Under the pieces are notes generated by a model, which was not told the DNA's origin, made no database searches, and was given only the letters and a program-made list of their open reading frames with translations. From NCBI RefSeq assembly GCF_030384885.1, contig NZ_CP128613.1: DNA of 64,000 bases. The stretch is one strand, 5' to 3'. Numbering within the stretch: position 1 is the stretch's first letter; every line of letters starts with the position of its first letter. This document shows, piece after piece, positions 13,196 to 64,000 of this stretch. The DNA comes from Escherichia coli. Lineage in GTDB: Bacteria > Pseudomonadota > Gammaproteobacteria > Enterobacterales > Enterobacteriaceae. The translations under genes were made by a program, and so were the position numbers.

Positions 13196-13218
13196 ACGGG
13201 GGAATCTCCCCCGTTAAA
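13196..13218. terminator. Stable hairpin after rpiA (possible terminator)
   Basis: ACGGGGGAATCTCCCCCGT palindrome; the flanking run is A-rich on the + strand, so terminator function is uncertain. Confidence 0.35.
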
Positions 13219-50341: not shown

Positions 50342-51117
50342 ACGGCTTCCTCCCCAGCCTGTTGGCAGTCGGCATAAAGGTCGGCTACCAGAACTCCCGT
50401 GATATAGCGTTTATAGGCCACGCTGCCCCGCAAATCTTCCTGCGGGAAAATGGCGTTGGCGACAGCCTGTTCAAGGGCATCGCCTTCCAGGTTTTGTTTT
50501 TCAACATCGTGCAGACGCAGTGCTTTACTGGCCACGCCATCCAACGCAATTCGCATACCGTCGTGATCGGTTAACGCAACGGCTGCCGTTACTACCGTTA
50601 ACCCAGCCTGAGAACGGCTAATTTTGCGAGTCGCACAGGTGCGATACGGATCTTTAATGATGATTTCGGTTAGCAGGCGATCGCATGGGCAGGCCAGGTA
50701 CTCCTCAATTGACAGAGTTTCACCGTTGCCAAAAACCAGTTCGGCATCCAGTGCCAGCAGGACGGGAAGCAGCACCGACTCTTCCTGCCGGGCGGCGATT
50801 TCACCACCAATGGTCGACTGATTACGAATATGGCGAGAGTAGACAAAGCCGAGAGCCTCACGCAGTGCTGCAGGAATAAACCGTGCATCACGCAGTGTTT
50901 GCAAGCGAGACATCGCGCCAATCCGCAATGCACCGTTATCCCAGTCAACCCAGTCCAGTTCCAGATCCTGTAAGGATATGGCAATCTTTTTATCGGTACG
51001 GGTTGGTGTGGCGTTGAGTTTACTGCCTCCGGCGAACCAGACGGCTTCATCCTGGTAGCGGCGCTTCAGTTCCAGCGCCTGTTCGACAGAGTCGGGCCTG
51101 AAAAATTGTTCAATCAT
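50338..51117 (-). CDS. ygfM: FAD-binding subunit of a molybdo-hydroxylase, YgfM (259 aa)
   Basis: CO-dehydrogenase/XdhB-type FAD-binding domain; operon position. Confidence 0.88.
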   Translation of the reverse strand: MIEQFFRPDSVEQALELKRRYQDEAVWFAGGSKLNATPTRTDKKIAISLQDLELDWVDWDNGALRIGAMSRLQTLRDARFIPAALREALGFVYSRHIRNQSTIGGEIAARQEESVLLPVLLALDAELVFGNGETLSIEEYLACPCDRLLTEIIIKDPYRTCATRKISRSQAGLTVVTAAVALTDHDGMRIALDGVASKALRLHDVEKQNLEGDALEQAVANAIFPQEDLRGSVAYKRYITGVLVADLYADCQQAGEEAV

Positions 51118-51167
51118 CTTCTTTCCTTATTTAACCCTCTTCCCTGCGGGAAGAGGGTATTTGTCAT

Positions 51168-56599: not shown

Positions 56600-57370
56600 G
56601 TGAAAAGTATAGTTGACCCATCGGCATTATTCATTGATTTAGGCGCGCAGAAACGTCCCACTGTGATTTCTGTTGTTGGGGCTGGGGGGAAAACCAGCTT
56701 GCTTTTTTGGCTGGCAGAACTGCTCCAGGCTAGCGGCAGGCGAGTGTTAATCACTACGACGACACATATGTTTATGCCAACGTCTCACTGGCCCGTGGTT
56801 TTCTGTCGTGATCCCGCCATGCTTCCTCATGCGTCTCTTACATCCCCCATTTCATTTTGTTTTCACAGCTGGAAAGCGAACCAGGGAAAAGTGCAGGGAT
56901 TTATGCCAGAAGCGATTGATGCACTGGTGCAACGACCAGAGTGTGACGTAATTCTCATTGAGGCAGATGGCTCGCGTGGAATGCCGTTAAAAGCGCCTGA
57001 TGAGCACGAACCTTGCATACCCAAAAGCAGTTGCTGCGTGATTGCTGTGATGGGAGGACATATTTTGGGTGCGAAAGTGAGCACAGAAAATGTCCATCGC
57101 TGGTCGCAGTTTGCTGATATTACCGGGTTAACACCTGATGCAACCTTGCAACTGAGCGATCTCGTTGCGCTGGTTCGCCACCCTCAGGGCGCATTTAAAA
57201 ACGTACCGCAAGGTTGTCGGCGAGTCTGGTTCATTAACCGTTTTTCTCAATGTGAGAATGCGATTGCGCAAAGCGAGCTCCTTCAACCGCTGCAACAACA
57301 CGACGTAGAGGCAATCTGGCTGGGCGATATACAAGAACATCCTGCAATCGCGCGCAGATTTGTGAATTAG
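56600..57370 (+). CDS. yqeC: YqeC, marker protein of selenium-dependent molybdenum hydroxylase loci (256 aa)
   Basis: P-loop-like VVGAGGKTS; pairs with yqeB. Confidence 0.85.
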   Translation: MKSIVDPSALFIDLGAQKRPTVISVVGAGGKTSLLFWLAELLQASGRRVLITTTTHMFMPTSHWPVVFCRDPAMLPHASLTSPISFCFHSWKANQGKVQGFMPEAIDALVQRPECDVILIEADGSRGMPLKAPDEHEPCIPKSSCCVIAVMGGHILGAKVSTENVHRWSQFADITGLTPDATLQLSDLVALVRHPQGAFKNVPQGCRRVWFINRFSQCENAIAQSELLQPLQQHDVEAIWLGDIQEHPAIARRFVN

Positions 57371-57417
57371 CGGCCCGGGTATTCCGGGTTACTGAAAGGA
57401 TATCCATTGAGGTTGGT

Positions 57418-59047: not shown

Positions 59048-59080
59048 AATGGCCGGATGGTATTACCCACCCGGCCTTTA
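59048..59080. terminator. Hairpin between convergent yqeB and yqeA (probable bidirectional terminator)
   Basis: GGCCGGATGGTATTACCCACCCGGCC inverted repeat flanked by A/T. Confidence 0.55.
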
Positions 59081-60062: not shown

Positions 60063-61448
60063 TTAGAGCACGGGAGGGACAAACGGTTTGCGTCGCAGGA
60101 AACGACCTCGCCCGGCTTTACCTGTAAAGGTGCCGTCACAGAAAATCGTTTCACCACGGGATAATGTTCTGACAATTGCGCCCTGACAGGTAAAACCCTC
60201 CCAGGGCGAGTAGTCGGCGTTGTCGTGGAGATGGCGGTGTTGAATTTGTTGACTCTGACGTGGGTCGATAATTACCACATCACCATCTGAGCCGGGCGCT
60301 AATAATCCTTTTTGTGGCCACAGGCCAAATAGCCTGGCGGGCATCGCACTGGTCAATTCAACAAAACGCTCCGGTGTGATACGTCCCGTCATCACGCCAC
60401 TGGAGAACAGCAACTGCATGCGGTTTTCCACACCGGGCAAGCCATTTGGGCAGCGGCTGAAATCGCCTTTAGAAATTTGCAGGCGTTGAGCCATCGAGAA
60501 GGTGCAGTGATCGGTCGCCACCACGTCAATCGCACCATCACTAATGCCACACCACAGTTTGTCCTGCTCACGCACGTTACGCAGTGGTGGGCTAAGAATG
60601 AACTTCATGCCGTCTTCTGTATCGTAACTGCGTTCGTCCAGCAGGAGATATTGCGGGCAGGTTTCAACCCAGACTGGCTGGTGATTCGCGCGGGCAAGAC
60701 GCAGATAATCCAGACCTAAGCCGTTAGAGAGGTGGACGATATAGAGCGGGGCGTTACCGGCAATTTGTGCCAGGTTAATCATGCGTGCGATGGCTTCCGC
60801 TTCGCATTCCAGAGGGCGACTCAAGGCGTGATAGCGCGGCGCGGTTAACCCTGCGGCGATAAACTCCGCCCGCTTGCTGGCGATAGCTGCATCATTTTCC
60901 GGGTGCACGGTGGTCAGCGCGCCGGACTCATGCAAGCGGCGTAACGCCTGCAAAACCTCGTCATCGTTGAGTTTGTATTGATAGGTTAAATAGAGTTTAA
61001 AACTGCTCAGTCCTTCTTCGACCATCATCGGAATTTCGTCGAGGATGGCGTGATTAATGTGCTGGATAACACCGTGAAAGCTGTAGTCAATAACCGCTTT
61101 ATGGGCGGCATAACCACGATAAACTTCCAGTTGATGGCGTAATCGGCAGCCATTTGGTCCAAATCCCATATGGTCAATAATGGTTGTTGTACCGCCACAC
61201 GCAGCTGCGCGGGTACCGGTAAAAAAATCATCACAACTGCGCGCGATGCCGACATCAATATTGAAGTGTGTATGGACATCTACGCCGCCAGGGAAAACGT
61301 AACAGCCAGTAGCATCAATTTCTTCATAAGGGAGCTGCGGCGAAATATCGGTGCCCAACTGGCGAACAATCCCGCTTTCAATCAGCAAATCCTGTTTGGC
61401 TTGTCCATCTGCGTTAACGATAGTGCCGTTTTTGATCAATACGCGCAT
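60063..61448 (-). CDS. hyuA: D-phenylhydantoinase / dihydropyrimidinase-like cyclic amidohydrolase HyuA (YgeZ, 461 aa)
   Basis: Begins MRVLIKNGTIVNADGQ; metal-binding GGVDVHTHF motif. Confidence 0.9.
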   Translation of the reverse strand: MRVLIKNGTIVNADGQAKQDLLIESGIVRQLGTDISPQLPYEEIDATGCYVFPGGVDVHTHFNIDVGIARSCDDFFTGTRAAACGGTTTIIDHMGFGPNGCRLRHQLEVYRGYAAHKAVIDYSFHGVIQHINHAILDEIPMMVEEGLSSFKLYLTYQYKLNDDEVLQALRRLHESGALTTVHPENDAAIASKRAEFIAAGLTAPRYHALSRPLECEAEAIARMINLAQIAGNAPLYIVHLSNGLGLDYLRLARANHQPVWVETCPQYLLLDERSYDTEDGMKFILSPPLRNVREQDKLWCGISDGAIDVVATDHCTFSMAQRLQISKGDFSRCPNGLPGVENRMQLLFSSGVMTGRITPERFVELTSAMPARLFGLWPQKGLLAPGSDGDVVIIDPRQSQQIQHRHLHDNADYSPWEGFTCQGAIVRTLSRGETIFCDGTFTGKAGRGRFLRRKPFVPPVL

Positions 61449-61500
61449 AGCAAACTCCAAAAACCCTCCGGCGAACCGGAGGGGAATAAGTTAAGAATAA

Positions 61501-62712
61501 TTATTCGGTTGCCAGCCAGCTTAACGGGATTGCAGCGTACATAGCGGCACAGGTCACCAGGTGAGATTTCCAGGTTTTTTCGTTAGGTGCGTGCGCTTCA
61601 GGTTCTTTACCAGGGCCAAAACCGATCACCGGAATGCCGTGACGACCCATGATGGAGACGCCGTTAGTTGAGAAGGTCCACTTATCAACAACCGGCGCTT
61701 TGCCAAACAGCCCTTCGTAGGCATTCACCAGTGCTTTAACAGTGAAGTGATCTTCTTCCACTTTCCAGGTCGGGAAGTAGCATTCGGTTGGGTAAACCAG
61801 GCCAGTCCAGGACGGACGGTCGTAGTTGTACATAGAAACAACCGCGTTAGCTTTCTGTACCGCAGGCAGGGCGCGGATTTCGTCCAGCGCGCCTTCCCAG
61901 GTTTCGCCCCAGGTCAGACGACGGTCAATTGAAACTGCGCAGCTGTCTGCTACAGCGCAACGGCTTGGAGATGTGAAGAAGATTTCAGAAACGGTGAGGG
62001 TGCCTTTGCCGAGGAATTCGTCATAGCCCAGGCGCTGGGAGAGTTCCTGCAATTCGCCAAGAATCGGACCCATTTTGAAAATGGCGTTATCACCGCGCTC
62101 TGGCGCAGAGCCGTGGCAGCTAACGCCCTGAACATCAATGCGAATTTCCATACGACCGCGTTGACCACGATATACCTGGCAGTCGGTTGGTTCGGTACTG
62201 ACCACAAATTCCGGGCGAATGCCAGATTGTTCAATAATGTACTGCCAGCACAGACCGTCGCAGTCTTCTTCCTGCACAGTGCCGGTGACCAGCAGGGTGT
62301 ATTCATCTTCCAGACCGAGGTCTTTAATGATTTTACCGGCATAAACCATAGATGCCATGCCGCCTTCCTGGTCGGAAGTACCACGGCCGCCGATCAGCTC
62401 ATCAGTTTCCATGCCTTCGTACGGATCGAAGTCCCAGTTTTTGATGTTGCCAATGCCGACGGTGTCGATATGCGCGTCCATCGCCACCAGACGCGGGCCG
62501 TGACCGATATAACCGAGCACGTTGCCCATCGGGTCGATTTCAACTTTATCGAAGCCGACTTTTTCCATCTCTTCTTTAATACGATGTACTACGCGTTTTT
62601 CATCGCAGCTTTCACTGGGAATAGCAACCATATCGCGCAGAAAGCGAGTCATGTCTGCCTGGTAATCTTTTGCTTTTTCAAGAATCAGTTTGAATGGAAT
62701 ATTCTTAGCCAT
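61501..62712 (-). CDS. ygeY: M20-family peptidase / amidohydrolase YgeY (403 aa)
   Basis: ArgE/DapE/CPG2-type metallopeptidase fold and motifs. Confidence 0.88.
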
Positions 62713-62769
62713 TATTTTTCTCCAGATTTTTTACTCCCCGTTTGGCGGGGAGCAGTTCCAATAGGGTGA

Positions 62770-63966
62770 TTAAGGTGCTACAGAGTGTTTGCCTTCCCAG
62801 ACAACTTCGCGGTAGTGCTTCACGTCGGTGTCGCCTTCAGTGCTGATAACCAGCACCACTGCATCTTTGTTCAGCGCCAGTTTTTCCATCAGGCTTTGAC
62901 GTTGCGGGTGATAATGAACCGCCGCGAGAACGCCTAAACCGACAGCGCCGGATTCACCGGAGATGATGCGCGGGTCGTTGCCGTACGGATTACCCAGCAC
63001 GCGCATACCTAATGCGGCAACGCTGTCCTGGCAGGAGATGAATTGGGTGGCGCAGTTACGTAGGATTTCCCAGCCCAGTGGGTTAGGTTCGCCGCAAGCC
63101 AGGCCCGCCATGATAGTGGCCATATCGCCGCCAACGTTGACGATGTCGCCTTTGACACCAGAACGATAGATACAGTCAGCTTTGTCAGGTTCAACAATAA
63201 TGCTGTGCAGATTTTGCGGGCTGTAGACGTCGACCAGATAACCCAGTACGCCGCCGGCCATCGCGCCGACACCGGCTTGCAGCAGAACGTGTGTTGGGGT
63301 TACGCCCATTTCACGCATTTGCTCGACGGCTTCATCTGCCAGAGTGGCATAGCCCTGCATGATCCAGGTTGGGATTTTGGTGTAGCCTTCCCAGGCGGTA
63401 TCTTGCACCACTTCCCAGCCGTGTTGCTGCGCGTGTTGCATGGTCAGACGAACGGTATCGTCATAGTTCATATCAGTGACGATGCACTCGGCTCCGAGGT
63501 TCAGAATGGCGTCAACGCGTTCCTGAGCGGAACCTTTCGGCATGTAAATTACCGCGTTCTGACCGAGTTGCTGTGCTGCCCAGGCAACACCGCGCCCGTG
63601 GTTGCCGTCGGTCGTTGTAGCAAATGTCATTTTTTCGCCGATGGCACTTTTCAGATGCTCGAATGACAGTGTTTCGATATCAAGATGATATTTTTCGCAC
63701 AACAACTGAGCGATGGCATATGCGCCGCCGAGCATTTTGAATGCGTTCAGACCGAATCGTTTTGATTCGTCCTTAACGAGAATTTTTTTCACCCCAAAAA
63801 GGTTTGCGAGATCGTCCAGCGCGCAAAGTGGTGTTGGGCGATAGCCAGCAATTTTCTGGTGGAACTGGCGCGCCAGTTTTGCCTGGCTTTGCGAAAAGAG
63901 CGGTGATGTTTCGCCGTTGAAAAATTTGTTATCGGCGATATCAATCTTCAATGAGAAAACGGACAT
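62770..63966 (-). CDS. ygeX: 2,3-diaminopropionate ammonia-lyase (PLP-dependent, 398 aa)
   Basis: PLP fold-type II sequence; begins MSVFSLKIDIADNKFFNGETSPLFSQSQAKLARQFHQKIAGYRPTPL. Confidence 0.9.
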   Translation of the reverse strand: MSVFSLKIDIADNKFFNGETSPLFSQSQAKLARQFHQKIAGYRPTPLCALDDLANLFGVKKILVKDESKRFGLNAFKMLGGAYAIAQLLCEKYHLDIETLSFEHLKSAIGEKMTFATTTDGNHGRGVAWAAQQLGQNAVIYMPKGSAQERVDAILNLGAECIVTDMNYDDTVRLTMQHAQQHGWEVVQDTAWEGYTKIPTWIMQGYATLADEAVEQMREMGVTPTHVLLQAGVGAMAGGVLGYLVDVYSPQNLHSIIVEPDKADCIYRSGVKGDIVNVGGDMATIMAGLACGEPNPLGWEILRNCATQFISCQDSVAALGMRVLGNPYGNDPRIISGESGAVGLGVLAAVHYHPQRQSLMEKLALNKDAVVLVISTEGDTDVKHYREVVWEGKHSVAP

Positions 63967-64000
63967 ATCCTATCCTTTTGGCCTCTGGAAATAGAGAGCC

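Follow-up and report, generated by a model that had tools for sequence, protein, structure and literature searches.

In the window, by which we mean the whole 64,000-nucleotide stretch of Escherichia coli DNA that was analyzed, ygeX and ygeY are neighbors on the minus strand. YgeW, YgeY and YgeX act, in this order, at the end of the anaerobic uric-acid (2,8-dioxopurine) pathway, in which YgeY makes 2,3-diaminopropionate and YgeX removes it. Transcription of the ygeWXY operon depends on sigma54 and YgeV. In PRECISE-1K, the unit is named 'ygeWXY' and belongs to the YgeV iModulon, which was rarely off baseline over 1,035 RNA-seq samples. A preliminary description of this DNA had read ygeX and ygeY as co-oriented, with which the RefSeq annotation agrees, and had placed a stem-loop between them. 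The features of this region are as follows.

62770..63966, minus strand: ygeX (dpaL) coding sequence, 2,3-diaminopropionate ammonia-lyase, the upstream cistron (ORF list and RefSeq annotation)
62772-62770, minus strand: ygeX stop codon UAA (sequence)
62713-62769, minus strand: ygeX-ygeY gap, 57 nt (sequence)
62755..62769, minus strand: 15-nt spacer UCACCCUAUUGGAAC from the ygeX stop codon to the hairpin base (sequence)
62732..62754, minus strand: ygeX-ygeY stem-loop (MFE and centroid folds)
62754-62746, minus strand: 5' arm of the hairpin, UGCUCCCCG (fold)
62745-62741, minus strand: hairpin loop CCAAA, 5 nt (fold)
62740-62732, minus strand: 3' arm of the hairpin, CGGGGAGUA (fold)
62734-62752: perfect 7-bp core CTCCCCG/CGGGGAG (sequence)
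62713..62731, minus strand: A-rich single-stranded linker and ygeY ribosome-binding site (RBS), AAAAAUCU-GGAG-AAAAAUA (sequence and predicted fold)
62723-62720, minus strand: ygeY Shine-Dalgarno sequence GGAG, 7 nt ahead of the AUG (sequence)
62712-62710, minus strand: ygeY AUG (sequence)
61501..62712, minus strand: ygeY coding sequence, M20 peptidase-family hydrolase, the downstream cistron (ORF list and RefSeq annotation)

The stem-loop in the ygeX-ygeY gap

Read in the sense direction, the RNA of the gap is UAA-UCACCCUAUUGGAAC-(UGCUCCCCG-CCAAA-CGGGGAGUA)-AAAAAUCU-GGAG-AAAAAUA-AUG, where the parentheses enclose the hairpin. The hairpin itself, 5'-UG CUCCCCG CCAAA CGGGGAG UA-3', contains 9 bp, namely 7 Watson-Crick pairs, a G.U pair and a terminal U-A pair. 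Six of the 9 bp are G-C or C-G, and the hairpin has in this respect the GC-rich stem and short loop of intrinsic terminators. It is located 15 nt past the ygeX stop codon and 19 nt ahead of the ygeY AUG, and both the Shine-Dalgarno sequence and the AUG of ygeY are unpaired in the predicted MFE and centroid folds.

Several comparisons indicate that such a structure is not expected by chance. The hairpin has a folding energy of -15.2 kcal/mol (p about 0.01 relative to shuffles of the gap), and folding of an 86-nt sense context around it yields z=-2.46. The motif CTCCCYG-N3-6-CRGGGAG has one match in the 64-kb window, where 0.00 are expected. More generally, the window contains 22 perfect GC-rich hairpins of at least 7 bp, versus 7.3+/-2.7 in Markov simulations; this roughly 3-fold enrichment is concentrated between genes. 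The ygeX-ygeY hairpin is genuine. The inverted repeat that the preliminary description had noticed in this gap is present, with its 7-bp core at 62734-62752. However, its division into 7 nt, a TTTG loop and 8 nt corresponds to the plus strand, i.e., to the antisense view of a hairpin whose sense loop is CCAAA. Similarly, the positions 62713-62769 that had been assigned to the hairpin correctly locate the gap, while the hairpin extends only from 62732 to 62754.

In an Rfam search that covered 3 kb around the hairpin, the best overlapping match was a flavivirus stem-loop with a score of 14.7 bits, well short of the family's threshold of 38.3 (E=8.4), which we dismiss as a chance match.

Orthologous gaps and natural alleles

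Using YgeY as an anchor, we retrieved 80 orthologous loci from contigs representing one genome per species, 73 of which have ygeX directly upstream. Gap lengths over these 73 loci are bimodal, and none lies between 45 and 54 nt. The 19 gaps of at most 44 nt are essentially unstructured (median MFE -0.2), whereas each of the 54 gaps of at least 55 nt is structured, with an MFE of -8.3 or lower. Among the 56 gaps of at least 40 nt, 34 contain a simple hairpin that is more stable than 95% of the hairpins in the gap's own dinucleotide shuffles, where approximately 3 would be expected. Over the 73 gammaproteobacterial loci, the gap is thus either a minimal spacer that accommodates only the RBS or such a spacer plus a hairpin, with nothing intermediate. 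The pattern illustrates that extra intercistronic length in these genomes consists of structured modules.

Hairpin-less genera include Kluyvera (with a 33-nt gap), Erwinia and Mixta, as well as Cedecea neteri. Because the hairpin is absent from 19 of the 73 loci, we consider that, on the evidence of these gaps, it is dispensable, and that any effect it has would be modulatory rather than essential. Some gaps, i.e., that of Citrobacter amalonaticus and some in Morganella and Rahnella, are hairpin-less according to our finder, which accepts loops of at most 9 nt and no bulges, but are structured according to full MFE folding. In the gap of C. amalonaticus, the apex is remodelled and a 7-bp outer stem is kept.

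The hairpins of 22 Enterobacterales are positional homologues. A MAFFT alignment of their gaps reveals a near-invariant CCCG...CGGG core, with a variable loop and variable flanks, and the only blocks conserved across the gap are this stem core and the Shine-Dalgarno sequence; CTGGAGAA is invariant in all 22. In a common register, 84% of the alignment cells are paired, versus 38-55% in slid controls. Alignment pair 56-70 covaries (13 sequences have C-G and 8 have U-A), and it is important to note that the covariation evidence consists mainly of this one pair among related sequences. When RNAalifold was run on the alignment unprompted, the hairpin helix was the sole consensus structure that it returned. 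Orthologous hairpins start no nearer to the stop codon than gap position 17. Beyond the Enterobacterales, Aeromonas, Vibrio, Shewanella and Ferrimonas also have strong hairpins in this gap, which are unrelated to the one described here.

Natural variation within E. coli was also considered. The K-12 allele, CUCCCUG-CAAAA-CGGGGAG, has a U.G pair in the stem, and matches 5,044 of 5,426 complete E. coli genomes (93%). The window's allele, with a perfect C-G stem and the loop CCAAA, is found in only 5 of the 5,426. All five alleles that we sampled retain at least 8 bp. They differ from each other by exchanges of U.G with C-G, of G.U with A-U or of G.U with G-C, by a loop base, or in the terminal pair, and with the exception of the terminal pair the stem changes are neutral with respect to pairing. 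Folding energies of the natural alleles range from -15.3 kcal/mol (K-12, with U.G) to -17.5 kcal/mol (the window, with C-G).

Taken together, the conserved core, the covarying pair, the pairing-neutral E. coli alleles, the RNAalifold helix and the recurrence of hairpins in this gap lead us to conclude that the hairpin's structure appears to be under selection.

Two further observations concern individual lineages. The X-Y gaps of Serratia oryzae (L041:2302-2500) and Serratia sp. Ag1 (L040:2369-2500) have grown to 199 and 132 nt. Their expanded segments fold as a long, near-perfect hairpin (gap MFE -78 and -37 kcal/mol) and are probably a MITE- or ERIC-like insertion; downstream of the expanded segment there is a small hairpin, UCUCGU-GCAG-GCGAGA, that is conserved. 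As to the window itself, the rarity of its hairpin allele (5 of 5,426 genomes) places it in a rare lineage related to strain 2013C-4282. A 701-base query (62400-63100) is 100% identical to that strain and about 97% identical to most genomes, and indels elsewhere, e.g., near 13211, distinguish the window from 2013C-4282.

Transcript ends and neighboring hairpins

The preliminary description had left it open whether the hairpin relates to polarity or to mRNA stability. An intrinsic terminator would require a U-tract 3' of the stem, and none is present on either strand; on the opposite strand, a U-run is found before the stem and not after it. The tail is UAAAAAAU if counted from the 7-bp core and AAAAAUCU if counted from the 9-bp stem, and either way contains 2 U in 8 nt. 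A terminator consensus scan made no call on either strand. Orthologous tails (8 nt after the stem) have 0-4 U, with means of 1.3 U and 4.05 A. Judged by its tail, then, the ygeX-ygeY hairpin is not a canonical intrinsic terminator, and the part of the question that concerns polarity by intrinsic termination finds no support, while the part that concerns stability fits a documented class of stem-loops (see below).

Rho might be considered as an alternative source of 3' ends. The 80 nt past the hairpin are 69% A+U, and the C/G ratio over the next 40, 80 and 120 nt is 0.83, 0.92 and 0.96, in an A-rich stretch that includes the translated start of ygeY. We found no rut-like C>G bias next to the hairpin over these 40-120 nt. 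The lack of this bias, together with the A+U-rich, single-stranded tail, favors an endonuclease over Rho as the origin of any 3' end here. We also found no conserved RNase E motif adjoining the hairpin.

Published maps of RNA 3' ends were then compared with the locus. For this comparison, the hairpin of the next gap downstream is needed:

61459..61483, minus strand: ygeY-hyuA hairpin CCCUCCGG UUCG CCGGAGGG followed by UUUUU, canonical terminator-like (terminator scan)

The TRS re-analysis gives the terminus '+ 3010012-3010020, dominant 3010018, Primary, ygeY', with a weak signal of 0.67 that was significant in 2 of 3 replicates. K-12 position 3010018 corresponds to about 61458 in the window, where the U5 tract behind the ygeY-hyuA hairpin ends. 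Among the entries listed in the same re-analysis, there is no terminus in the X-Y gap (30087xx) or in the W-X gap, in LB cultures that hardly express the operon. In the supplements to Adams 2021 and to the SRPS study, which also used LB and thus a nearly silent operon, no ygeW, ygeX, ygeY or hyuA entry is among those listed, and the uric-acid studies considered here contain no per-gene RNA-seq or transcript-structure data for E. coli. Because the operon is almost silent in LB, the absence of 3' ends at the hairpin is weak evidence. Nonetheless, the 3'-end map agrees with the conclusion suggested by the sequences, namely that the ygeY-hyuA hairpin would terminate transcription and the X-Y hairpin would not; we take this agreement as supporting only.

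The ygeY-hyuA U-tract is followed by GGAG, which is the hyuA Shine-Dalgarno sequence. A hairpin abuts this Shine-Dalgarno sequence in nearly all of 76 orthologs of the gap. UUUUU occurs after it exclusively in E. coli, while other genera have UCUGGAG (2-3 U); E. coli appears, from this comparison, to have turned a U-less hairpin into a terminator. The hyuA reading frame itself (60063-61460, minus strand) begins in the ORF list with a TTG (MEFAMRVLIK...); the annotated ATG, at 61448, is 12 nt further downstream. Since this TTG overlaps the terminator's U-tract and the Shine-Dalgarno sequence, the annotated ATG is likely the true start.

On the other side of ygeX, the ygeW-ygeX gap (57-58 nt) occupies 63967-64000 and continues past the end of the window to about 64024; in K-12 it is 3007453-3007509. 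It contains a strong GC-rich hairpin GGGCCGAUC...GGUCGGCUC of about -15 to -25 kcal/mol, whose tail, UCUAUUUC, is weak and contains U. Of 71 orthologs of this gap, nearly all have a GC hairpin of 9-13 bp, also in genera that lack the X-Y hairpin.

Hairpins of this kind are common in the region. Within 65 kb, 20 of the 26 co-oriented gaps of at least 30 nt hold a significant hairpin, on which basis the X-Y hairpin is typical of E. coli intergenic architecture. These gaps include two with U-less hairpins. In the ssnA-ygfM gap (51117-51166, minus strand), an 11-bp hairpin ACCCUCUUCCC-GCA-GGGAAGAGGGU of -19.4 kcal/mol is located 16 nt ahead of the ygfM start, and its tail UAAAUAAG has no U-tract; the preliminary description had likened the X-Y hairpin to this one, and the two do share an architecture. 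In the yqeC-yqeB gap (57370-57416, plus strand), which belongs to the same selenium/molybdenum-purine cluster, a 7-bp hairpin that lacks a U-tract, GGCCCGG-GUAUU-CCGGGUU (-10.6 kcal/mol, p=0.02), is found 27 nt ahead of the yqeB start. In addition, one copy of a hairpin GGCCGGGTGGGTAATACCATCCGGCC followed by ATTTTCATTT is located downstream of yqeA (59051-59076, minus strand). In K-12 (3012394-3012613), two copies of this hairpin flank an insert of roughly 150 nt with REP-like palindromes, an arrangement that looks like an insertion plus a duplication of the terminator hairpin.

Possible functions and known relatives

Our preferred interpretation, which we offer tentatively and with a little less than even confidence, is that this intercistronic stem-loop without a U-tract is a post-transcriptional determinant of RNA stability or processing in the ygeWXY mRNA. 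RNA polymerase would pass through the hairpin without stopping. RNase E might then cut the A/U-rich single-stranded stretch just downstream, or transcription might end further on. In either case, PNPase and RNase II would trim the RNA back until they stall at the 9-bp hairpin of about -15 kcal/mol. A protected ygeW-ygeX segment would remain, and the mRNA levels of ygeX and ygeY could differ as a consequence. The 15-nt spacer should hold the hairpin beyond the footprint of a terminating ribosome, and as the hairpin begins 16 nt or more after the stop codon, terminating ribosomes are not expected to melt it.

The exonuclease barrier and the cleavage step are both inferred by analogy from a documented class in E. 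coli. Transcripts in this organism that lack an intrinsic terminator end at stem-loops without U-tracts that block PNPase and RNase II; these stem-loops are energetically indistinguishable from terminator hairpins, and the two classes are interconvertible via their U content (PMC6061677). Moreover, RNase E cuts within intergenic regions, after which PNPase trims to a stem-loop whose folding energy sets the strength of the block (PMC10667835). The feature common to these cases, a stable stem-loop with no U-rich sequence after it, is present in the ygeX-ygeY hairpin. In principle, such a hairpin could protect either the 3' end of the upstream RNA or the downstream RNA's 5' end.

Protection of the downstream end is one form of an alternative explanation in which the hairpin serves ygeY, whether as a 5'-terminal shield against RNase E, as an obstacle to RNase E scanning, or as an insulator or standby-site organizer for translation initiation. 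Both the shielding of RNA by a 5' stem-loop and the obstruction of RNase E scanning are established mechanisms. The position of the hairpin would suit such a role, since in Enterobacterales the distance from its end to the ygeY AUG is fairly constant at 19-30 nt (mostly 20-26), with 8-12 nt to the invariant Shine-Dalgarno sequence, and the ygeY-hyuA hairpin likewise abuts a Shine-Dalgarno sequence, 12-15 nt from the AUG. RNase E processing that alters 5'-UTR stem-loops and translation has also been reported (PMC10667835), which we count in favor of this explanation. However, the modelled accessibility of the ygeY RBS is unchanged without the hairpin in E. coli and in 18 orthologs. In partition-function calculations, deletion of the hairpin, mutation of an arm and compensatory mutation made no difference to predicted accessibility (0.68 versus 0.64 in E. 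coli with the hairpin altered, and means of 0.46 versus 0.47 in the 18 orthologs), although this test is purely thermodynamic and weak. The hairpin's upstream flank is also unconserved, which implies that there is no conserved cleavage site, the hairpins of Aeromonas are 62 nt from the AUG, and hairpin-less species retain the same Shine-Dalgarno sequence. We consider a role in serving ygeY to be unlikely.

A leaky terminator or a hairpin-stabilized pause could lead to partial polarity, with less ygeY than ygeX transcript, or could time the loading of ribosomes onto ygeY. The stem is GC-rich with a terminator-like energy, hairpins with few U's may be inefficient intrinsic terminators (Dar & Sorek, PMC6061677), and the sister hairpin between ygeY and hyuA has in E. 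coli both a U-tract and a mapped 3' end. Against this, only 2 of the 8 nt that follow the stem are U, and the consensus scan made no call. In addition, the U-poor, A-rich tails of the orthologs suggest that U-tracts are avoided rather than decaying, and the termini listed include none in the X-Y gap, yet include one 1.3 kb downstream in the same transcript. We therefore regard weak termination or pausing as very doubtful. It is also conceivable, if rather improbable in our judgment, that the hairpin has no current function and is a relic, e.g., of a decayed terminator or an insertion, that is kept by descent and lost at random. This would account for the 19 of 73 loci that lack it with no visible compensation, and for the frequency of hairpins in co-oriented E. 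coli gaps (20 of 26 in the region); moreover, most stem pairs are invariant and thus uninformative as to structure. A relic would not, however, be expected to have a stem that is more conserved than its loop and flanks across genera whose YgeY differs by 5-10% and whose neutral intergenic sequence is scrambled. The compensatory C-G/U-A pair, the pairing-neutral character of all sampled stem polymorphisms in E. coli, the retention of a 7-bp stem under a remodelled apex in C. amalonaticus, and the filling of the same gap by unrelated hairpins in Aeromonas, Vibrio, Shewanella and Ferrimonas likewise argue against a relic. Finally, we give very little credence to three other roles, namely binding of the hairpin by a protein or sRNA, a sigma54 promoter inside the operon that would serve ygeY, and membership in the dispersed REP/BIME family. 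The operon is sigma54-dependent, and TGGAAC-N6-CTGCA in K-12 loosely resembles the -24/-12 consensus, but its spacing is one base longer than that of TGGCAC-N5-TTGCW, the window's allele (CCGCC) lacks the -12 GC, and the only sigma54 sites reported by ChIP-seq and gSELEX are upstream of ygeW. In 5,044 E. coli genomes the hairpin is present once per genome, and it likewise occurs once in the window, which argues against REP; it has no Rfam match. The sigma54 and REP readings are largely refuted already, and the variable loop argues against sequence-specific recognition of the loop.

If the hairpin does determine mRNA stability, it would be another case in which segmental stabilization of an mRNA sets the relative levels of enzymes in an operon. 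A more ambitious hypothesis, which we think improbable, is that the three hairpins of ygeW-ygeX-ygeY-hyuA are evolutionarily tunable RNA 'valves' that set the stoichiometry of the urate-pathway enzymes, and that the X-Y hairpin uncouples the level of YgeX from that of YgeY. Three observations could be seen as tuning: the X-Y module comes and goes as a whole (gaps of at most 44 nt versus at least 55 nt), its stability depends on the allele (93% of E. coli genomes have U.G, the rare lineage of the window C-G), and the U-tract of the ygeY-hyuA hairpin was acquired specifically in E. coli. The operon is of recent medical interest in connection with the degradation of uric acid by gut bacteria. If the X-Y hairpin works as a stability element, the native intercistronic hairpins might affect ygeX:ygeY:hyuA ratios when the cluster is overexpressed in probiotic E. 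coli. It is important to emphasize that the X-Y hairpin has little import outside of the ygeWXY operon. Most likely, it is a previously undescribed member of a well-known kind of stem-loop and a part of ordinary operon architecture.

Among known elements, the ygeX-ygeY hairpin is similar to the class of Dar & Sorek in that it is GC-rich, has a terminator-like energy and size, lacks a U-rich tail and is located just past a stop codon, and it could plausibly block PNPase and RNase II. Unlike that class, which is defined by mapped 3' ends and exonuclease mutants and is found at the ends of transcription units, our hairpin is known from its sequence and is inside an operon, directly before a translated cistron. 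A mild C>G bias downstream characterizes only the Rho-dependent subclass of the former; the ygeX-ygeY hairpin has C/G ratios of 0.83-0.96 and an A-rich context.

Classic SRPS cases are malEFG, papBA and Rhodobacter puf. The SRPS stem-loops resemble ours in being intercistronic and followed by an A/U-rich single-stranded segment suited to RNase E, and in the predicted differential stability of the upstream versus downstream cistron, with a hairpin energy that depends on the allele. However, the malEFG element is a REP, which the ygeX-ygeY hairpin is not, and while SRPS stem-loops are established by a genome-wide study in E. coli (PMC10667835), the assignment of ygeWXY is a prediction from sequence. 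REP/BIME elements are also small palindromes in intergenic gaps that could protect 3' ends, but the ygeX-ygeY hairpin is single-copy, is much shorter, lacks the REP consensus and has homologues that are positional orthologs rather than dispersed copies. With intrinsic terminators, the hairpin shares a GC-rich stem of 7-9 bp, a short loop and a location beyond the stop codon; it differs from them in that an A-run takes the place of the U-tract, and that it has no upstream A-tract with which to act on the other strand.
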